Assembly (NCBI GenBank): GCA_039818665.1
Contig: JBCBTJ010000002.1
Location: forward strand, 16,195 to 80,194
Direction: 5' to 3'
Source: Pseudomonadota bacterium
GTDB lineage: Bacteria > Pseudomonadota > Alphaproteobacteria > Caulobacterales > Hyphomonadaceae
DNA: 64,000 nucleotides
Of the stretch, positions 4,761 through 32,909 are shown piece after piece (the stretch's first letter is position 1; the number at the start of each line of letters is the position of its first letter). A model generated the notes under the pieces. The model ran no database searches, had not been told where the DNA came from, and was given only the letters and a program-made list of their open reading frames with translations. The position numbers and the translations under genes were made by a program.

Positions 4761-5957
4761 ATGCTGGAAGGCATTCGGGTCGTTGAACACGCGACATACA
4801 TGGCGGCCCCGGGCGCCGGCTCGATCCTGCGCGACTGGGGCGCGGACGTGATCAAGATCGAACCGCCGGGCGGCGATCCGATCCGCAACTTCTTCCGCAA
4901 TATCGGCACCGACCTCCAAGACAATCCCGTCTTCGCCTTCGACAATCGCGGGAAGAAATCGATCGTCGTCGACACCTCGAAGCCCGACGGCCAGGCGCTA
5001 GCGCGGCGATTGGCGGGCGACGCCGACGTGTTCCTCACCAATGTGCGCCCCGGCGGCCTCAAGCGCGCCGGGCTTGATTACGAGGCCCTGTCCGCGACCA
5101 ACCAAAAACTCGTCTACTGCTCGCTCACCGGCTACGGCCTGGAAGGCCCCGACGCCGACCGGCCGGGCTTCGACATTGCAAGCTTCTGGTCGCGCTCCGG
5201 CGTCGCGCACTTGACGATCCCGAAGGGCGGCGAACCCTTCGCGCTTCGCACGGCCTTCGGCGACCACACCACGTCCATCGCGGCCGCCGCCGGTATTTGC
5301 GCGGGCCTCGTCGAGGCCGGGCGCACGGGCAAAGGCCGGCTGGTCGAAGCTTCGCTCTTGCGCACCGCGCTCTACGCGATGGGATCGGACTTCGCGATCC
5401 AGCTCTTCTTCAAGCGCATCGGCTCGACCAAGACGCGCGCCGAGCAAATCGTGCCGCTGACGAACTTCTTTCAGACCGGCGACGGGTCGTGGCTCTGCAT
5501 CGTGGCGCGCCAAGGCGACGTCGACTACGCCCCGCTCTGCCGCGTGATCGGGCGCGAAGACCTGATCGAGGACGAACGCTTCACAAGCGCGAAGGGTCGC
5601 CGGCGAAACTCGGCCGAACTTGTCGGGGTCTTCGACGAGGGCTTCGGCAAGCTCACCAAGGCCGAGGCCGCAGCGCGCCTCGACGGGGAGTCCATCGCCT
5701 GGGCGCCGGTCCAGACGCTCGCCGAAGTGGCCGAGGACCCCCAGGTGGCCGCCGCGGGCGCGATCCAGCTAACGCCATCGGCCGACGGCGAAGGCAGCTT
5801 CGCCTCGCCCGGCTCCCCAATCCGGTTCAAAGACGCCGACGACGGCCCGAAAGGCCCCTCGCCCGCGCTCGGCGAGCATACCCGTGACGTGCTTGGCGAA
5901 GCCGGGCTCTCCGCCGATGAGATCGACGATCTGTTCGCCGCCGAGATTGTCGCCTAG
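4761..5957 (+). CDS. CoA transferase, family III (CaiB/BaiF-like)
   Basis: 398 aa. N-terminus GIRVVEHATYMAAPGAGSILRDWGADVIKIEPPGGDP is typical of CoA_transf_3. Confidence 0.85.
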   Translation: MLEGIRVVEHATYMAAPGAGSILRDWGADVIKIEPPGGDPIRNFFRNIGTDLQDNPVFAFDNRGKKSIVVDTSKPDGQALARRLAGDADVFLTNVRPGGLKRAGLDYEALSATNQKLVYCSLTGYGLEGPDADRPGFDIASFWSRSGVAHLTIPKGGEPFALRTAFGDHTTSIAAAAGICAGLVEAGRTGKGRLVEASLLRTALYAMGSDFAIQLFFKRIGSTKTRAEQIVPLTNFFQTGDGSWLCIVARQGDVDYAPLCRVIGREDLIEDERFTSAKGRRRNSAELVGVFDEGFGKLTKAEAAARLDGESIAWAPVQTLAEVAEDPQVAAAGAIQLTPSADGEGSFASPGSPIRFKDADDGPKGPSPALGEHTRDVLGEAGLSADEIDDLFAAEIVA

Positions 5958-7429
5958 CGCTGGAGTTTCACGAGCAGATTGTTGCGTTGGTCGACGCCGA
6001 CGACGCAGATCTGCGTCAGCTGGGCGCTGCAATCGGCGGCGGCGAACGCATCGCCGGCGAAGTCGGCGCAGCTCGGAGACCGGCCGACATCGCACAGCCT
6101 GGCGATCTTGAAGCCGGCCTCATTGAACGCCGCGACCAGGCGCCCGGGGCGATCAAGCGCTTCCATGAACACTTGACGTTCGAGCCCCTCCGGCGCCTGA
6201 GCCCTCACCCCCTGGAAATAAGCTTCCCAGTCCGACGCATCGATGACGACCCCGCGATACGCGCGCGGCGCCCGCGGCAGAACCTTTTCAAGGTTCGCCA
6301 TGTTCACCTGTGTCGTCGCCGAGAACCAAGACACCCCTTGATAAGTCAAAAGGACGGACGGAATCCCGAGCGCCGCGACGACCGTCACCGCGCCGATCCG
6401 TTGATAGCGGCGCGGCAGCAGCAAGAGCGGCGTCGCGGCCAGGCCCGTCGCCAGCGGCGTCAGCGATCGGAACTGCACGTAGATGCCGGACACGATGATG
6501 GCGAGATACGGCGTGATCGCCGTCATCGCCCCATATCCGGCGCGCAGCGGCCGGCCGAAGCGATCTTCCCGGTCGGCCGCCAGCCGCCAAAGCCCCAGCG
6601 CCAGAACAGCGGCGAGCACCGCGAGCGACGAGGCCGGCAGCCAGGTGGAGACCTGAACGATCACTGCGTCCGCACCCCGCGCGACATTGGCGCCGAGCGA
6701 GGCCAAATCTTCCGCCGGGCGCGGATTGCGCCACTCGGCCAGCTCGACGCCGTACGCGCCGAAGAACCAAATGTTCAGCGCTGAGGCGAACACGTAGCCG
6801 GCGATGAGACCGAGCCCCCAAACGACGCCAGGCCCCAGCCCCAAGACGAAGCCGCGCGCGGTGTCGCGCGTGGCGAGCGGGACGGCGGCGAGCGCCAGCA
6901 AAAAGTAGAAATAAGGCAGCGCGCCGAACTGGAGAATCGCAAACACCGGCGCCCACCACCAGCTGAACCTCTGTACGATCAGGACGGAGATCGGAAAGAT
7001 CAAAGCCGCCGGCAGCACGGCGGCTGGCCACATGTTCTGCGCATGAAGTCCGGGAAACAGGCCGATCAAGACGGCGAGCAGCGCGGCGATCAACGCATCA
7101 TCGAACAAGCGGCGGAAAATCAGAAAAACGCCGCCGGCCGTCAGCGCGATGTTTGCGAACCAAGCCAGATGCGGATCCACCCGCCGCGCGAGGTCGAAGG
7201 TAAGATAGTTCAGCCACCGCCCTTCGCTTTGCACCTTCGACAGGATCGCGTTTTCGGAGGCGTACCGGATGGAGTCGTGGCGCCAGTAAGCGATGTCGAG
7301 CGCGGCCCACGCGATCACGATGAACGCGGCCGCGCCCAGTGCGATCAGCCCATAGGCCGCACGCCGCGTCCATTGGTCGATCGGCGGAGGAAGGCTAGAG
7401 ACCGTCTCGGTTGCAGATGAAGACGCCAT
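5954..7429 (-). CDS. polytopic membrane protein with Cys-containing C-terminal soluble domain; possible GtrC/GT-C-like glycosyltransferase
   Basis: ORF 5954-7486. I prefer the ATG at 7429 (MASSSATETV..., AGGA about 9 nt upstream) because it avoids a head-on overlap with the divergent gtrA-like gene. About 10 or more hydrophobic segments are followed by a ~110-aa tail with 4 Cys. Function is inferred from context only. Confidence 0.55.
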   Translation of the reverse strand: MASSSATETVSSLPPPIDQWTRRAAYGLIALGAAAFIVIAWAALDIAYWRHDSIRYASENAILSKVQSEGRWLNYLTFDLARRVDPHLAWFANIALTAGGVFLIFRRLFDDALIAALLAVLIGLFPGLHAQNMWPAAVLPAALIFPISVLIVQRFSWWWAPVFAILQFGALPYFYFLLALAAVPLATRDTARGFVLGLGPGVVWGLGLIAGYVFASALNIWFFGAYGVELAEWRNPRPAEDLASLGANVARGADAVIVQVSTWLPASSLAVLAAVLALGLWRLAADREDRFGRPLRAGYGAMTAITPYLAIIVSGIYVQFRSLTPLATGLAATPLLLLPRRYQRIGAVTVVAALGIPSVLLTYQGVSWFSATTQVNMANLEKVLPRAPRAYRGVVIDASDWEAYFQGVRAQAPEGLERQVFMEALDRPGRLVAAFNEAGFKIARLCDVGRSPSCADFAGDAFAAADCSAQLTQICVVGVDQRNNLLVKLQR

Positions 7430-13518: not shown

Positions 13519-15142
13519 CGCGCTCAACCCTTCGGCCAGCTTCGCGACGGCCCGCCGGCTGTTCCGGCGCGCGGACCTCGTCGCCCTGGCTCTGATCCTT
13601 GCGCTCGGCTTTCCGATCGCGGTGGTTCTGTTCGAAGCCGTCCTCGGCGGCGGCGAGATCTGGCGGCATATCGCATCGACCACGTTGACAGGCTACGCCC
13701 TGAACACCGTCGCGCTGCTCACCATCGCCGCCGTGTTGATGCTGATCACGGCCGTCCCCGCCGCCTGGCTGGTCACCATGCGCGCCTTCCCGGGCCGCGG
13801 CGTATTCGAATGGCTCTTGATCCTGCCGCTCGCCGCGCCGGGTTACGTGCTGGCCGTCGCCTATGCGGACCTGCTCGGCGTCGGCGGACCGGTGCAAAGC
13901 GCCCTGCGCGAGGCCACCGGCTGGGCCGCGCGCGACTATTGGTTCCCGCCAATCAAGAGCGTGCCCGGCTGCGCTTTCGTCCTTGCTTCGGCCCTTTACC
14001 CTTATGTCTACCTCACCGCGCGGGCGGCCTTTGTGAGCCAATCGGTCTGTACGCTTGAGGCCGCGCGCAGCCTCGGCGCCTCGCCGCGGCGGACGTTCTG
14101 GCGCGTCGCCCTGCCCGCCGCCCGCCCCGCCATCGCCGCCGGCCTCGCCTTGGCCTTGATGGAGGCGGCGGCCGATTTCGGCGCGGCGGATTTCCTCGGC
14201 GCGCCGACGCTCACCGTCGGCGTCTTCCGCGCCTGGTCCAGCTATGGCGATGTCGGCGCAGCCGCGCGGATCGCGATCCTGGTCGTGGCGCTGATGCTCA
14301 CTCTGCAATGGATAGAGCGGCGCCAGCGCGGCCAAGCCGGCTCGGCCGCCACTTCGGTCCGCTGGCGCCCGCTCGCGCGGGAACGGATGACCGGTTTGGC
14401 GGCCCTTGGCGCGTCGGCGTTCTGCGCCGGCGTCTTTCTTATCGGCTTCGCTTTGCCCGTCGGCCGGCTGATCTGGGTCGCGCTTGAGACCGCGCCGACC
14501 TCGCCGCCGCTTGGCGAGCATGTCCGCAACTCGCTGGTGCTGGCCGCCGCGGGCGCGAGCGTCGCCTTTGTGTTGGCGCTCTCAGCCGCGCTGCTCGGGC
14601 GCGGCGACCGCCCCTCCGGACGGCTGGCGAACACGATCGTCGCCGCCGGTTATGCGACGCCCGGCGCGGTGCTCGCCCTCGGCGCCCTCGCCTTAGCGGT
14701 CTTGCTGCCGGGCGGACTCGCGGGCGGCGCGGCCATCGCGCTTCTGGTTTGGACCTATGCGGTGCGCTTCACCGCGGCCGGCGCCGCGCCCATCGAGGCG
14801 GCGCTGCGCCGGGCGCCGGCGAGTCTCGGCCATGCCGCGCAAAGCCTCGGCGCAGGGCCGATCCGTCGGACCTTGCAGGTCGACCTGCCGCTCGCCCTGC
14901 CCGGCGCGGCCGCCGCGGCGCTGATCCTGTTCGTGGAGACGCTGAAAGAGCTGCCGGCGACCTTCATGCTCGCGCCTTATGGCTGGGACACGCTCGCCGT
15001 GCGCGCCTACACGCTCGCCTCCGATGAGCGTCTCGCCGCCGCCGCCGCGCCCTCCTTGTTGATCACGCTCGCCGGCCTCGGACCGGTGATCCTGCTCTCC
15101 TGGGGCCTGGCGCGCGCGCGGCCCGGAGCGCCGGGCGCATGA
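13433..15142 (+). CDS. iron ABC transporter permease (FbpB-like, duplicated permease domains)
   Basis: 569 aa with about 12 hydrophobic segments, placed between the SBP and ATPase genes. The start is uncertain: the track start overlaps the SBP gene by 86 nt, and I saw no ATG/GTG/TTG between 13519 and the first TM segment. Confidence 0.75.
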   Translation: MKRRRRRSAPTAKTRSRRRPFTTGSAGISALNPSASFATARRLFRRADLVALALILALGFPIAVVLFEAVLGGGEIWRHIASTTLTGYALNTVALLTIAAVLMLITAVPAAWLVTMRAFPGRGVFEWLLILPLAAPGYVLAVAYADLLGVGGPVQSALREATGWAARDYWFPPIKSVPGCAFVLASALYPYVYLTARAAFVSQSVCTLEAARSLGASPRRTFWRVALPAARPAIAAGLALALMEAAADFGAADFLGAPTLTVGVFRAWSSYGDVGAAARIAILVVALMLTLQWIERRQRGQAGSAATSVRWRPLARERMTGLAALGASAFCAGVFLIGFALPVGRLIWVALETAPTSPPLGEHVRNSLVLAAAGASVAFVLALSAALLGRGDRPSGRLANTIVAAGYATPGAVLALGALALAVLLPGGLAGGAAIALLVWTYAVRFTAAGAAPIEAALRRAPASLGHAAQSLGAGPIRRTLQVDLPLALPGAAAAALILFVETLKELPATFMLAPYGWDTLAVRAYTLASDERLAAAAAPSLLITLAGLGPVILLSWGLARARPGAPGA

Positions 15143-16158
15143 GCTACGCCGCGATCACGCTCGAGCGCATCACGCGCCGATACAAAGGCCGCGCCGTCGT
15201 CGAGGATGTCGACCTAACCCTGCCGCCAGGCTCGGTCACAGCGCTCGTCGGCGCGTCGGGCGCGGGGAAATCGACGCTGCTCCGCCTCATCGCTGGCCTG
15301 GAAGCGCCCGACGCCGGCGAGATCCGCGCGGGCGACGAAGTGCTGTCGTCTCCCACGCGCCTCGTTCCGCCCGAAAAGCGCGGCGTCGGCCTCATCTTCC
15401 AGGACTTCGCGCTGTTCCCGAACATGACAGCGCTCGAAAACGTACGCTTCGGGCTCGCCGATCTGCCGCGCGAGGCCGCGGACGCCCAAGCGCGCGCCTG
15501 GATCGACCGGCTCGGCCTTGCCGAGCGCGCGGGCGCCTATCCGCATCAACTCTCCGGCGGCGAGCAGCAGCGCGTCTCCATCGCCCGCGCCCTGGCCCCG
15601 AAGCCGCGCGCCGTGTTGATGGACGAGCCGTTCTCGGGGCTCGACCCGTCTTTGCGCGAGGAGGCCCGCGCCGCCGCGCTGGGCGCGGTGGCGGCCTCGG
15701 GCGCGCCGGCGCTGCTGGTCACCCATGACGCAGAGGAAGCCCTGTCGGCCGCCGACCAAGTGGCCATCATGCATGGCGGGCGCATCCTCCAGACCGGCGC
15801 GCCCGAAGCGGTCTATTGCGCCCCCGCGGACCCCGTCTCGGCCGCCGCGCTCGGCCCCGTCAACCGCCTGCCCGGCGGCGATCCAACGACCGCGGCCCTG
15901 GCCGCCGCGGCTGGCGCGCCGGCCGGCGCTGATCTGTTCGTGCGTCCCGAAGGCGTCCTCATCGCGTCGGACGGGCCCGTTGAAGCCATGGTCGAGACCT
16001 CGGCCCGCACCGGACCCTTGAGAACCTTGCGCCTCCGAGCCGGCGAGATCGCCTTGCGGGCGGTCGGGCCGCCTGATAGCGCGCCCAAGGCGGGCGACGC
16101 CTGCCGTATCGCGCTGGACCCGCACGCGGTCATCCTATTCGGCCCGACCTCGCGCTAG
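15139..16158 (+). CDS. ABC transporter ATP-binding protein (FbpC-like)
   Basis: Walker A GASGAGKST, signature LSGGEQQRV, Walker B VLMDEPFSGLD. 4-nt overlap with the permease gene. Confidence 0.9.
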   Translation: MSYAAITLERITRRYKGRAVVEDVDLTLPPGSVTALVGASGAGKSTLLRLIAGLEAPDAGEIRAGDEVLSSPTRLVPPEKRGVGLIFQDFALFPNMTALENVRFGLADLPREAADAQARAWIDRLGLAERAGAYPHQLSGGEQQRVSIARALAPKPRAVLMDEPFSGLDPSLREEARAAALGAVAASGAPALLVTHDAEEALSAADQVAIMHGGRILQTGAPEAVYCAPADPVSAAALGPVNRLPGGDPTTAALAAAAGAPAGADLFVRPEGVLIASDGPVEAMVETSARTGPLRTLRLRAGEIALRAVGPPDSAPKAGDACRIALDPHAVILFGPTSR

Positions 16159-16214
16159 GCTGACAAATTCGTCATTCTGCAGGCCGCGTCTCGCTTTGGC
16201 GTTCAACGCGCCGT

Positions 16215-27899: not shown

Positions 27900-28459
27900 T
27901 CCGGGCAGCCCGCCAAACAGCGCGAGACGCTCGTCCAGACCAACGCATAGGCCGCCGTCTCCTGATCGGCATGATCCAATTGCGCCGGCGACCGGGGTCG
28001 ATCAGCGAACCCGGCCGCGGACCGAGGATCAGCGCGTCGGTTGCGAGCGCGCCAAGCCGGGCGCCGGCATGCCCGCCGCACGGCCCGGGCGACAGCGTCA
28101 GGACCCGGCCTTTGCCTTGCGTTTGCGGCGGCCCGCGGACGCGTCAGCCTAGCGTCCACGCTCAATCAGAACAACCGAAACGCGCCGAAGGCGGCCACAT
28201 GGCGTTTGATGTCGGACGACTACTATGGGCGCATTTTGAGACATTAGAAGCTGATCATTCCAACGGCCGGAGTTGGCTCTTCTCAGTCCGAGACCACCGA
28301 ATGGGCGAGCGACTTAAGTCGCCCTAAAATGGACCCTCACCGCTTGGCGACCGATGCCCGAAGTGCTAATTTTTCGGCTGCTCGACGGAAGAGGAGTTCG
28401 AAGCCCATTGCGGACTTGCCGCTGCGTGCATCTCACATAGTGATAGTCGGTATCGTTTC

Positions 28460-28475
28460 GCAGAATAGATTCTGC
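28460..28475. promoter_or_regulatory. perfect inverted repeat GCAGAAT-AG-ATTCTGC upstream of islet ORF A
   Basis: Read directly from the sequence: 7-bp arms and a 2-nt spacer, ending 23 nt upstream of the GTG at 28499. Candidate operator or small hairpin. Confidence 0.3.
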
Positions 28476-28498
28476 ATATGGATTAGAACGCGTATGGG

Positions 28499-29503
28499 GT
28501 GAACACTCATCAGGAAGAACAAGTGAGTAAACTGCATAATGAGATGCTCAATTGGGCAACCCCGATCATAACCGGGGAAGATTGGCACTGGTTTGGTTGG
28601 CTGTTTGCGCAACGACCTACACGACCGTTTGTAACCCACTTAGTTGATGCTTGCGTCGAATGCGAATTGGGGCTCGAAGGGTTAGGATGGTCCCTGCTTA
28701 AAGACGTGGCCAGCATCTCGGGAAAAGAAAAGCACGAACCACATTACGAGATGCTGCTGCAGAAGCTCTCAGAAATCTTGATTCTCAATCAGCTCTTAAA
28801 GCTCCCCTGGCCTGAAGAGGCATCCTTCGAGCATGAGCCTTCGGCGGCACCAAATGGCAAAAGACCGGAATTGAAGGTTGAGACCCATCAACAAGTTTTC
28901 CTGTTTGAGGTGAAAGCGCCGGCGTTGTTATCGCATCAGCGCGCTAGAGCACTGAATCCGCTTCAGTATCCGGGGCGAATGTTTGATATGTCGATGCGCG
29001 CCATACTGTCGGGAGAGCAAGGCTCAACCTTACCCCGTGATAATCCGGTAAAGGACTTCCTGATCAGTGCGCAGAAAAAATTCTCAGAGTTCAATTTCGA
29101 GAAAGAGACATTCGGAATTCTCATCATAGTATGGGACGATTTTATATATGAACCTATAACCAGCTTGGTTCATGAAGAAAGCCAGGGGCTATTGACGGTG
29201 AATTCTTTTGCCCAAGACGAGGACGGAGCACCGTTAGAGTTCCCGAATATTAACTCGGTCATTGCAGTAAGGCATCTGCTCTATTTCCAAAAAGAAGTAG
29301 CGGAGACGTCACTCGAACGCAGCCACTGCTTCGATTTTGGAGGCGAGCATGACCTTCCGAATGTTGCGATATCAGTTCCTGGCACACTGGATGTTCCAGA
29401 GTTTGTGAAAGCGGGCCTTCGTGCTCTGGACTATGACGATGAGCGAATTAGCAGATCTGCAGACTACCGTCCCCAAGAATTGGTTATGTGGCTTAACATC
29501 TAA
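28499..29503 (+). CDS. islet ORF A: hypothetical protein with a PD-(D/E)xK nuclease-like motif arrangement
   Basis: 334 codons open in ~42% GC DNA, where stops should be frequent. GTG start at 28499, alternative ATG at 28544. Motif layout: helix HEPHYEMLLQKLSEILILNQL, then KRPE(124)LKVET, then VFLFE(137)VK(139)AP, then helix DNPVKDFLISAQKKF, then strand FGILIIVWDD. Confidence 0.6.
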   Translation: MNTHQEEQVSKLHNEMLNWATPIITGEDWHWFGWLFAQRPTRPFVTHLVDACVECELGLEGLGWSLLKDVASISGKEKHEPHYEMLLQKLSEILILNQLLKLPWPEEASFEHEPSAAPNGKRPELKVETHQQVFLFEVKAPALLSHQRARALNPLQYPGRMFDMSMRAILSGEQGSTLPRDNPVKDFLISAQKKFSEFNFEKETFGILIIVWDDFIYEPITSLVHEESQGLLTVNSFAQDEDGAPLEFPNINSVIAVRHLLYFQKEVAETSLERSHCFDFGGEHDLPNVAISVPGTLDVPEFVKAGLRALDYDDERISRSADYRPQELVMWLNI

Positions 29504-29615
29504 CCCAAGCCCGATTTGTCCGCGTTGATGGTATTCGCGAACGGCTTAAGCCCGCCCCATCTAAGACACTTGTGATTTCTGGAATGGGCGCAGAAGCAGT
29601 CGTTAGAAGTTACCT

Positions 29616-29915
29616 CTAAGATCTATACCAGTCCTGATCTGGTAGCTGACGTAACAATTGCCCTACGACTTCCAAGGCTCCGTTGTTATCGGCCCATACC
29701 AACAACTCAACGAGCCTATCGTTCTTCTCTCGATCAGTGCTTAGCGTCCATCCGCTGAGGACAAGCGGATGAGGGGGCGTCCACCGCCGATCGTGCTGGC
29801 GCAGTCTTTCCCAAAGAGTTTTCCACGGGATTGGCTTAGGACTCACCCGATCGTCGACGCAGCATTGGCGCAAGACTAACCGCGCTTCATCGCTAATGTT
29901 GTTGTTCTCAGGCAC
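29616..29915 (-). CDS. islet ORF B: small Trp-rich hypothetical protein, translationally coupled to ORF C
   Basis: 99 aa. GTG start at 29915 overlaps the last codons and stop of ORF C by 8 nt, with GAGG about 10 nt upstream. No internal Met and no TM segment. 6 Trp (IPWKTLWERL, RRWTPPHPLVLSGWTLS, LLVWADNNG, DQDWY). Confidence 0.45.
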   Translation of the reverse strand: MPENNNISDEARLVLRQCCVDDRVSPKPIPWKTLWERLRQHDRRWTPPHPLVLSGWTLSTDREKNDRLVELLVWADNNGALEVVGQLLRQLPDQDWYRS

Positions 29916-30591
29916 CTTCGTTTAACCTCATGACCCAATTTGAAATGGCGTCTACAAATAGTGGAATAATCGCCGCAGCAGCCGTCACACCGAATAGTAT
30001 TGCGAAGAACAAACCAACAATTTGCAGTGTCAAATTCAGTCGTCTGGTCCATTCCGGAATAACACGAGTGATCAATAATTTTCCGGGAAACACCAGTCCG
30101 TCGTTGGTGCGTACCTGTATGATCTGCGGCCCTTGATCCACGTAGTGCACATGGATTTGAAGAAGCTCCTGAGGCCCCAAATTTCCGAGCCTCAAAGTGC
30201 AGTGTCCTTCAGCTATGGTTTCCACGCCAAAGTTACGGTTCGGGACGACCCGCAGCTGCCAATCCATCGGACGAAAACTTAGCACAACTTCGCAGTCTTC
30301 CGCCGTTTCGCCGCCCAAATTCTGCAGAATTACGACCTCCGAATGCACCTGAGATGGTGGGTGGCCTTGCTCCTGGGTTGGGATCAAAAAGGATGCACGA
30401 GGTAAGACATTCCAGAATAAGTCTGGTTTTCTTCGGAGTTGATCCTTGACCCTCCACACAATCATTGCAGTGAGCACGGCTGAAATCGCACTAATGACTT
30501 GAGATGCAATCAAGCCCAACACTCCATCATGCGTGAAACCAACGACCCACGAGTCGTCTCGCACCCTAATTCTCGGAAAAGGGATACGCAA
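29908..30591 (-). CDS. islet ORF C: hypothetical two-TM membrane protein with a central beta-rich domain
   Basis: 227 codons open in low-GC DNA. TM1 is GVLGLIASQVISAISAVLTAMIVW and TM2 is LTLQIVGLFFAILFGVTAAAAIIPLF, flanking a ~135-aa soluble segment. The start is non-ATG: TTG 30591, GTG 30564 or GTG 30522. Confidence 0.6.
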   Translation of the reverse strand: MRIPFPRIRVRDDSWVVGFTHDGVLGLIASQVISAISAVLTAMIVWRVKDQLRRKPDLFWNVLPRASFLIPTQEQGHPPSQVHSEVVILQNLGGETAEDCEVVLSFRPMDWQLRVVPNRNFGVETIAEGHCTLRLGNLGPQELLQIHVHYVDQGPQIIQVRTNDGLVFPGKLLITRVIPEWTRRLNLTLQIVGLFFAILFGVTAAAAIIPLFVDAISNWVMRLNEGA

Positions 30592-31076
30592 CGATCATGG
30601 CGGCGGCCTTGTCTGCTCCCGTCGCTAGCCGGCGACAAGAAGTCATCCAGCTTCGTCGATATTTGGTAGCTGTATTTCATGATGTGCTAGACATATGAGC
30701 GCTTGGCGGGAGGGTCTGCGCGGCCAATGACTGCAATTGGGATCAACCCGCCATTCACACGATCATGTCCAAGCGGTGCAAACGGCCAAATTCTGTCGTT
30801 TTGATTGAGTATGAACCTATGGGAGGTCCGTCGCTGGATGACGCAGAACCGTGCGTCTCGGCGGACCCCGCTAAGGTACGCCGTCGACCGCCAGGCGCGC
30901 CAAGCCCGGCGCGCTCGGACCGCCCATATGCACTCTTCCAGCGCGGACCGGGACTCTTCGGCCAATATCCATAGGCCCTCGCCAGGCGCATCGACACTGT
31001 CGATGGGGCCCGATTCCAGGCGCCGATCATCGTGGATAGATTGCGCGGCGGCGGCGCGGGCGCCGGGCCTGGGGTT

Positions 31077-32909
31077 TTAAGATTTCGCCTGTGGGGCGAG
31101 CCGGATGTTGAGCTCGCGCAGCTGCGCGTCGCTCACCGGCGAGGGCGCGCCCATCATCAGATCGCGCGCCTGCTGGTTCATCGGGAACAGCGTCACGTCC
31201 CTCAAATTCTCGACATCCGCCAGCAACATGACGATCCGGTCGACGCCGGGCGCGATGCCGCCATGGGGCGGGGCGCCATAGCGGAAGGCGTTCAGCATGC
31301 CGCCGAACTCGGCCTCGACCACGTCGGGCCCGTAGCCGGCGACCTCGAAGGCTTTCAGCATGATGTCCGGCCGGTGGTTCCGGATCGCGCCGGAGGACAG
31401 CTCGATCCCATTACAGACAATGTCGTATTGGTAGGCTTTGAGATCGAGGATCTCGTCGTCCGTCTTGGCGCCCTCCAGCGCGGCCAGCCCGCCTTGGGGC
31501 ATGGAGAAGGGGTTGTGCGAGAAGTCGATCTTCTTCGCGTCCTCGTCATACTCGTACATCGGAAAATCGACGACCCAGCAGAAGCGGAAGACGTCTTTTT
31601 CAACGAGATCAAGGTCTTCGCCGATTTTGAGACGCGCCGCGCCGGCGAGCTTGTAGGCGTCGGCGGGCTTGCCGGCTGAGAAGAACACCCCGTCGCCGTC
31701 GCCGAGCCCGGTCTCTTTGAGGAAGGCCGCGAGATGATCGGGGTCGAAGTTTTTGAGCGCGGGGTCTTGGCTCGCGACCGCGCCGCCCTCGCCGGTTTTG
31801 AGGCGCGCATAGCCGAGGCCCGGCGCCTGCATCTCTTTCTTCGCCCAGCCGTCGAGATCGTCGAAGAATTTGCGCGATTGGGCCGCGGTCGCCTGGGGGG
31901 CCGGGATGGCGACCACTTCGCCGCCGCCTTTGATGATTTTCGCGAAGATGCCGAAGCCGGTCTTGCCCTCGTCGACGAAGAAGTCGGTGACGTCCTGCAG
32001 CTCGATCGGGTTGCGCAGGTCCGGCTTGTCCGAGCCGTATTTCGCCATCGCCTCGGCGTAGGGAATGCGCGGGAACGGGCCGCCGGGAACGGTCCGGCCC
32101 TTGCCCCGCCAGTCGGCGAACTCCTCGAACACCCCGCGCATCACCGGCTCGATCGCCTGGAACACGTCCTCCTGGGTGACGAAGCTCATCTCCACATCGA
32201 GCTGGTAAAACTCGCCTGGCGAGCGATCGGCGCGCGCGTCTTCATCGCGGAAACACGCGGCGATCTGGAAGTACCGGTCAAACCCCGAGACCATCAGCAA
32301 CTGCTTAAACTGCTGCGGCGCCTGCGGCAGCGCATAGAACTCGCCGGGGTGCAGGCGGGAGGGCACGAGAAAGTCGCGCGCGCCTTCCGGACTGGAGGCC
32401 GTGAGGATCGGCGTTTGATATTCGGTGAAGCCCTGCTCGACCATGCGCCGGCGGATTGCGGCGATGACCTCTGAGCGCAGGATCATATTGGCGTGCAGCG
32501 TCTCGCGGCGGAGGTCGAGATAGCGGTGAGTCAGTCGGATATCTTCGGGATAGTCCGGTTCGCCAAACACCGGCAGCGGCAGCTCGGCGGCTTCGGACTG
32601 CACCTCGATCTCGCCCGCGACCACTTCGATCTCGCCCGTGTTGAGATTGTCGTTCACAAGCTCTGCATCGCGCGCGACCACTTTGCCTTCGACGGTGAAT
32701 ACGCTTTCAGCCCGAAGCCGCTCCACGGTCTCAAAGCCCGCCGCGCCCGGATTGAAGACGATTTGCGTCAGCCCGAAATGGTCGCGCAGATCGATGAAGA
32801 TCACGCCGCCATGGTCGCGCCGGCGGTGTAGCCACCCGGACAATTTCACCGTCTCGCCGACATGGCGTTTGCGCAGTTCGCCGCAGGTGTGTGAGCGATA
32901 GGCGTGCAT
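31077..32909 (-). CDS. aspS: aspartate--tRNA ligase
   Basis: ATG at 32909 ([13 protein letters not shown]...), AAGGA upstream. Class II aaRS motifs: [17 protein letters not shown] and [14 protein letters not shown]. Confidence 0.95.

Follow-up and report, generated by a model that had tools for sequence, protein, structure and literature searches.

A low-GC islet in a Hyphomonadaceae genome carries a membrane protein gene, a probable orphan reading frame and a convergent nuclease-like gene

A 64,000-nucleotide stretch of DNA from a Pseudomonadota bacterium (Alphaproteobacteria; Caulobacterales; Hyphomonadaceae; GenBank assembly GCA_039818665.1, contig JBCBTJ010000002.1, forward-strand positions 16,195 to 80,194), referred to here in its full length as the window, contains a segment of foreign base composition that holds three open reading frames (ORFs), termed A, B and C. 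With modest confidence, we read this region as a horizontally acquired low-GC patch in which two unrelated, solitary accessory genes, A and C, stand tail to tail with the small ORF B between them. An earlier reading made from the sequence alone (the original prediction) had instead proposed a C-B pair coupled to the convergent ORF A and had named gene neighborhood as a check. The adjacency recurs in 0 of 10 loci with a C homolog and in 0 of 13 loci with an A homolog, so that in the loci examined the original prediction was contradicted on its own terms. If this reading holds, the locus is just another small accessory islet of hypothetical genes, and the proposal of a three-gene system can be dropped.

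The GC content of the islet (∼28150-30750, ∼2.6 kb) is ∼0.49-0.54 as compared to ∼0.66 in the remaining window and chromosome, and ORFs A, B and C each lie 12-17 GC points under the host chromosome. The islet is flanked by housekeeping genes, with a TSCPD-domain protein and a pentapeptide-repeat protein encoded on one side, and aspartyl-tRNA synthetase and an RNase D-like protein on the other. The original prediction was silent on the islet, yet its ORF coordinates were reproduced when the sequence was re-read. ORF C ends in GGT GCC TGA and ORF B begins with GTG CCT GAG, giving the 8-nt overlap it described, and the ORF A stop at 29503 leaves the 112-bp convergent gap (29504-29615). The features of the locus are as follows (CDS, coding sequence; TM, transmembrane; aa, amino acids).

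28150-30750, no strand: low-GC islet between the pentapeptide-repeat gene and the aspartyl-tRNA synthetase gene
28397-29503, plus strand: ORF A unit; annotated CDS 28523-29503, 326 aa, with a PD-(D/E)xK-like signature
29504-29615, no strand: convergent spacer from the B stop to the A stop, 112 bp; minus-strand RNA hairpins after the B stop
29616-29915, minus strand: ORF B, 99 aa, GTG start; unannotated orphan ORF, probably coding
29908-29915, minus strand: 8-nt overlap of ORFs B and C, GTGCCTGA, comprising the B start codon and the C stop codon
29908-30513, minus strand: ORF C, corrected CDS, 201 aa, TTG start; TM helix, beta-sandwich, TM helix
30514-30591, minus strand: 26-codon N-terminal extension of the earlier ORF C, most likely 5′ leader, with GGAG inside

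Neighborhoods of ORF A and ORF C homologs

Ten loci with a C homolog (L005-L014) and thirteen with an A homolog (L002-L004 and L015-L024) were compared. The C-homolog loci lack an A homolog, none of their reading frames holds a B-like sequence, and no consistently coupled small ORF follows their C genes; the A-homolog loci contain neither B nor C. The neighbors of the C homologs are unrelated housekeeping genes, encoding LepA, MoaA, a glyoxalase, a D-Ala-D-Ala carboxypeptidase, a response regulator, BtpA, an FGGY-type kinase, a metallophosphatase, a Suv3-type helicase, a Mur-ligase fragment and a penicillin amidase, and the neighbors without a Pfam domain at L005, L006 and L008 are unrelated to one another. 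The claim that C and B form an obligate complex with fixed stoichiometry was thus not borne out, as B is present in none of the ten C-homolog loci and is without a homolog in the searches run. The proposed functional coupling of the convergent ORF A to C and B fared no better, given that A and C co-occur in none of the 23 related loci and that the DNA homology of the A unit excludes both B and C.

Members of the A and C families are found as low-GC islets, each about the size of one gene, in unrelated surroundings. At nine of the ten C loci the C gene has a GC content of 0.46-0.59 as compared to 0.57-0.68 in its flanks, a drop of 5-20 points; the tenth locus, L005, is a contig of 1.3 kb whose GC content is low over its whole length. 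The low-GC stretch around C homologs spans 620-820 nt and ends 0-175 nt from the stop codon. In the window, C is not a solitary insert of this kind, since it shares its islet with ORFs B and A. Clusters of the C family hold one to three members, and the named sources are Hyphomonas and Hyphomonadaceae. Genes of the A family have a GC content of 0.46-0.51 against flanks of 0.56-0.68 and form low-GC islets of ∼1.1 kb in every locus, with no mobility gene visible in them. That both families appear as gene-sized, sharp-bordered inserts without a recognizable mobility gene raises the question of how single genes move.

The borders of the ORF A unit are particularly sharp. The window shares 85% DNA identity with loci L002 and L015-L021 over 28397-29498 only, and this homology begins ∼125 nt upstream of the annotated start and ends at the A stop codon (the copy in L002 lies at 4875-5976). 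Copies in other organisms adjoin a gene for a peptide ABC-transporter binding protein, unlike the context in the window. Because the homology ends at the A stop codon, A appears to have arrived independently of B and C, and, taken together with the lack of any recurring A/B/C adjacency, the sharp borders argue that the window locus is a juxtaposition of independently acquired units and not a conserved module. Under this scenario, A would have been acquired separately and its tail-to-tail placement with C and B would be incidental. On balance, we favor the view that A is a separately acquired, independently mobile, nuclease-like gene whose convergent position has no further significance.

The longest form of ORF A spans 28499-29503 on the plus strand (334 aa, GTG at 28499), and the NCBI call is 326 aa from 28523; homologs of both lengths exist (P0003, 334 aa; P0002, 326 aa). 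At least 403 homologs were found, all hypothetical proteins without a Pfam domain. Invariant residues among 32 A-family sequences are P123, E124, E137 and K139 (P123-E124 and E137-x-K139). Judged from sequence alone, these are PD-(D/E)xK-like motif residues, and Pfam and PDB profiles gave no match. Pfam, NCBIfam, PADLOC and PHROGs returned nothing above threshold for A, nor did sequence and profile searches of the PDB with the A family return anything. At one A-homolog locus (L015), a gene at 1267-2445, two genes upstream of the A homolog, encodes a 392-aa protein with a PADLOC TIR-effector match (E 1.9e-8), a hint that genes of this family may be found among defense-type genes.

ORF C, a membrane protein of an unnamed family

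ORF C is a real gene of an unnamed, uncharacterized family. The original prediction had taken it to be 227 aa long, starting from a TTG and occupying 29908-30591. The open frame is present as described, whereas the start is not, the true CDS being 29908-30513 (201 aa). Homologs found with HMMER align from residue ∼28-36 of the 227-aa form; residues 1-19 are aligned by no homolog, and few alignments start before residue 27. Both the NCBI and the Logan gene calls give a 201-aa product (P0001 / MEO0981197.1, a hypothetical protein of a Pseudomonadota metagenome-assembled genome, locus tag AAFX03_00930). Because the homolog alignments and both annotations agree, the start was placed at the TTG at 30513, which is preceded by GGAG at 30525-30522, 8 nt upstream, and the first 26 codons of the longer form were assigned to the 5′ leader.

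An indexed search of 5.8 billion proteins with ORF C returned only ORF C itself. An exhaustive HMMER search (phmmer) recovered 163 family representatives at E<=1e-3, with E values from 2.5e-54 to 1e-3, three of them below 1e-30; almost all are 176-205 aa long, about 190 aa. An alignment of 60 family sequences contains three invariant residues, N65, G67 and G167, the last of these in TM helix 2 (TM2). P82, L112, E116, P129 and R135 are near-invariant, with L112, E116, P129 and R135 at least 90% conserved, and the motifs Q-N-x-G, L-G-x-x-E and V-R-x-x-x-G recur across the family. ORF C itself shows the full-length similarity, the R-P/K-x-x-x-W after TM helix 1 (TM1), the motifs and the glycine in TM2 that define membership.

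As the original prediction had noted, ORF C belongs to no recognized family: Pfam, NCBIfam, PADLOC and PHROGs gave nothing above threshold, and Pfam yielded only scattered, single sub-threshold matches across 60 family members. Sequence and profile searches of the PDB with the C family returned nothing, a scan of metagenome contigs with the close C subfamily was likewise empty, viral contigs held no C relatives, and literature searches found no relevant work. Two candidate relatives were rejected. P0131 (1078 aa), which looked like a multi-domain relative by virtue of 13 matched stretches, is a tandem-repeat artifact, and a 564-aa gene beside the A homolog in L003 (tblastn E 0.005-0.008) reached an hhalign probability of only 0.3%. 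With a confident structural model and no entry in the searched copies of Pfam and NCBIfam, the C family is a candidate for definition as a new domain family.

An AlphaFold2 model of ORF C built with the family alignment has a mean predicted local distance difference test (pLDDT) score of 96.9 and consists of a helix at residues 2-26, ten beta strands within residues 32-141 and a helix at residues 154-200. The model, with which hydropathy agrees, upholds the earlier description of a TM helix near each end and a beta-rich middle. Foldseek searches of the PDB and BFVD with this model yielded generic beta-sandwiches only. The best PDB match was CBM2 6qfs (E 2e-4, TM-score 0.5), followed by the TRAP subunits 8b5l_v and 8rjc_5 (E about 1e-2) and by accessory domains of chitinase and hexosaminidase.

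The orientation of the protein was read from its charges. Mean counts of Lys and Arg in the C family are 2.83 after TM1 and 2.17 before TM2, whereas the tails average 0.48 and 0.68; the excess on the domain side has the same sign in 58 of 60 members. The positive-inside rule is well established, and applied to this excess of positive charges next to the domain at either TM helix, it predicts that the beta-sandwich of C faces the cytoplasm, with both short tails pointing outward. C would then insert into the inner membrane as a helical hairpin (TM helix, ∼110-aa sandwich, TM helix with an invariant Gly), and the sandwich may use its conserved face (QNxG, LGxxE, VRxxxG) to bind either a ligand or a protein at the membrane. 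Such an arrangement, in which a pair of TM helices holds a beta-sandwich against the cytoplasmic side, would be an unusual topology.

With its ∼110-aa all-beta sandwich attached to TM helices, C resembles the membrane-anchored Ig-like or CBM-like sandwich domains (CARDB/DUF11-type, CBM2, TRAP-beta). The C motif V-x-Q-N-x-G-x-x-x-A-x-x-V/I-E-V resembles the N-x-G strand motif of CARDB/DUF11 domains; however, Pfam gave no match to these domains for C itself, and DUF11 was reported in only 1 of 60 family members, at E 0.022. TM-scores of the structural matches to the C model are low (0.3-0.5), and no carbohydrate-binding residues were identified. Moreover, these domains are extracytoplasmic, whereas the C sandwich is bracketed by two TM helices and predicted to be cytoplasmic.

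As no gene partner is conserved across the family, C most likely functions on its own or as a homo-oligomer. Its role is probably accessory, either conflict-related or envelope-related. The patchy distribution, foreign composition and orphan-gene company, which includes the nuclease-like A family with its TIR-domain gene nearby at another locus, weakly suggest a conflict-related role, against which stands the lack of any match to the defense models of PADLOC.

ORF B and its relation to ORF C

ORF B is 99 aa long and starts with GTG; it has six Trp, lacks an internal Met and includes the segment WTPPHPLVLSGWTLS, all as originally described. It is probably a real, translated, lineage-restricted orphan gene. 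The GC content at codon positions 1/2/3 of B is 0.60/0.42/0.60, as compared to 0.59/0.35/0.52 in A and 0.58/0.39/0.52 in C, and the B frame is the top scorer among all six frames. When codon usage was scored with an independent training set of 3,274 codons from A-family and C-family genes of other loci, B reached z 2.2 (p 0.006); chunks of an independent low-GC gene reached z 2.55 and 3.56, and six shadow ORFs of the islet gave z -1.57 to 0.96. The Pfam family DUF2795 (PF11387) matches residues 70-99 of B with E 0.011 and 16 bits against a 25-bit cut-off, aligning to positions 21-49 of the 54-position profile, a partial and sub-threshold match; with ten shadow ORFs, no match reached an E of 0.1 or lower. 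The literature mentions DUF2795 only in passing, with its function not given. A single-sequence AlphaFold2 prediction of B gave a moderately confident model of four helices (pLDDT 70.9, predicted template modeling score 0.57), for which Foldseek found nothing at E<2.

Two features of the DNA around B also speak for a gene. The 404-nt low-GC stretch that follows C falls outside the ORF A unit and exceeds the usual 0-175 nt behind C homologs. RNA of the minus strand of 29504-29615 has a minimum free energy of -40.2 kcal/mol (z -2.26) and forms stable hairpins right after the B stop, not after the C stop; the plus-strand RNA has z +0.40. A consensus scan found no T-run terminator in 29504-29615, and its promoter and terminator matches were at chance level.

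Several observations weigh against a coding ORF B. When the codon model was trained on nothing but the A and C genes of this locus, B scored z 1.45 (p 0.07, given an open frame). Shuffling the 412-nt gap produced 99 or more consecutive codons without a stop in 21% of cases (p ∼0.2); the length of B alone is therefore unremarkable, and its reality rests on the other evidence. The pLDDT of 70.9 from the single-sequence model stands without a negative control. The GAGG that serves as a Shine-Dalgarno-like element lies 10 nt from the GTG start and is a weak signal. B is called by neither PGAP (NCBI) nor the Logan gene caller; as locus tags and accessions run on directly from A (AAFX03_00925, MEO0981196.1) to C (AAFX03_00930, MEO0981197.1), NCBI annotated nothing between the two. 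Finally, a k-mer-indexed protein search at E<=1e-3 returned no homolog of B, not even B itself, and since the exhaustive HMMER search covered C and not B, remote B homologs could exist.

Other searches for B agree with its orphan status. The exact sequence is absent from a collection of 15 billion proteins, tblastn against plasmids and phages and a scan of viral contigs found no relative, a PDB search returned nothing, and Pfam, NCBIfam, PADLOC and PHROGs gave nothing above threshold. A 100-aa convergent gene that follows the A homolog in L004 was considered as a B relative and proved to be unrelated.

The strongest competitor, which we nonetheless regard as rather doubtful, is that ORF B is no gene at all, C being monocistronic and 29504-29907 being a non-coding 3′ region or decayed foreign DNA that is stop-free by chance. 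The missing homologs, the omission of B by two annotation pipelines, the frequency of such runs in shuffled sequence, the weak start, the locally trained codon test and the lack of a coupled downstream small ORF in the C-homolog loci are all what this explanation would predict. It does not readily account for the independent codon test, in which no shadow ORF exceeded 0.96, for the frame-specific GC at codon positions, for a DUF2795 match that ten shadow ORFs failed to approach, for the predicted fold, or for hairpins placed after the B stop instead of the C stop. On the favored reading, in which B is a gene, the locus also illustrates that standard annotation pipelines can miss a plausibly coding ORF.

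A C-B operon is plausible. The part of the original prediction that stands is the placement, which suits co-transcription, together with the coding-like character of B; a conserved operon does not, as the arrangement recurs in no related locus. Mechanistically, ribosomes on the C transcript may re-initiate at the GTG 5 nt before the C TGA and so yield B, which would then be a lineage-restricted orphan and not a conserved partner of C. ORFans of horizontally acquired AT-rich islets offer a close parallel: B has no homolog, all three ORFs are low in GC, and genes of the A and C families form gene-sized low-GC inserts among housekeeping genes. A difference is that the islet in the window is marked neither by an integrase or tRNA gene nor by an attC site or clear direct repeats.

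It is improbable that C and B instead constitute a lineage-specific two-component module, such as a membrane effector and a small soluble regulator or antitoxin whose stoichiometry is fixed by translational coupling. The shared strand, the 8-nt start/stop overlap and the probable coding status of B fit such a module, as does the closest C homolog (L005, 47% identity), which has a co-directional gene 28 nt downstream. That gene, however, codes for an unrelated membrane protein, 196 aa or longer, and no co-directional accessory gene accompanies C at the remaining nine loci. Start/stop overlaps are common between functionally unrelated neighboring genes, so that the overlap alone carries little weight. 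C and B resemble type II toxin-antitoxin pairs in being small co-directional genes with a start/stop overlap (GTGCCTGA) in foreign DNA; they differ in that their adjacency is kept in no homolog locus, in that B is an orphan and C a membrane protein found alone elsewhere, and in that Pfam, NCBIfam, PADLOC and PHROGs give neither protein a significant toxin, antitoxin or defense match.

Slimmer still are the prospects of a scheme in which the C family is a new class of solitary, horizontally mobile inner-membrane proteins whose cytoplasmic sandwich would sense an invader and whose hairpin would act on the membrane, as a one-gene exclusion or abortive-infection device; in this lineage, C would have captured or given rise to B as a fast-evolving, translationally coupled small partner, a young or de novo gene acting as a modulator. 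That A, B and C form a single system of nuclease, membrane protein and small partner, for instance in anti-phage defense, is highly unlikely: the three share one low-GC islet, A carries the invariant PD-(D/E)xK-like motif and at another locus a TIR-domain gene stands two genes away from an A homolog, but A and C are found together at none of the 23 related loci examined, the sharp borders of A-unit homology leave out B and C, the known defense systems of PADLOC (PADLOC-DB v2.0.0) match none of the three at E<=1, and the convergent orientation speaks against a single operon.

Repeats, mobility signals and other observations

No integrase and no clear direct repeats marking the islet were found, there are no tRNA genes in the whole window, and no Rfam family falls within the islet. 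The islet also differs from an integron gene cassette, as a simple motif test without a covariance model (RYYYAAC...GTTRRRY, 50-150 nt) found no attC match on either strand of 28000-31100, where 0.62 would be expected by chance. Short repeats flanking ORF A or the islet are no more frequent than chance predicts.

Two repeats may be recorded individually. An 18-nt GC-rich sequence, GCGCGCCAAGCC(G/C)GGCGC, is present on both sides of the islet at 28047-28064 and 30895-30912; the copies are 17/18 identical and partly palindromic, and could mark the insertion border or be a chance occurrence in GC-rich DNA. An imperfect 26-nt direct repeat (ATGGGCGCA...TTAGAAG, 73% identical) lies around ORF A at 28225-28250 and 29584-29609. 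It is probably without meaning, as by our own estimate a 9-nt exact seed occurs ∼20 times by chance here.

Elsewhere in the window, an asponA Rfam match at 31203-31451 on the plus strand, antisense within the aspartyl-tRNA synthetase gene, scores 23 bits as compared to a gathering score of 113 and is almost certainly due to chance. The most extreme composition of the window is found at 14001-16000, where the GC content is 0.74 and the AT skew is -0.21.

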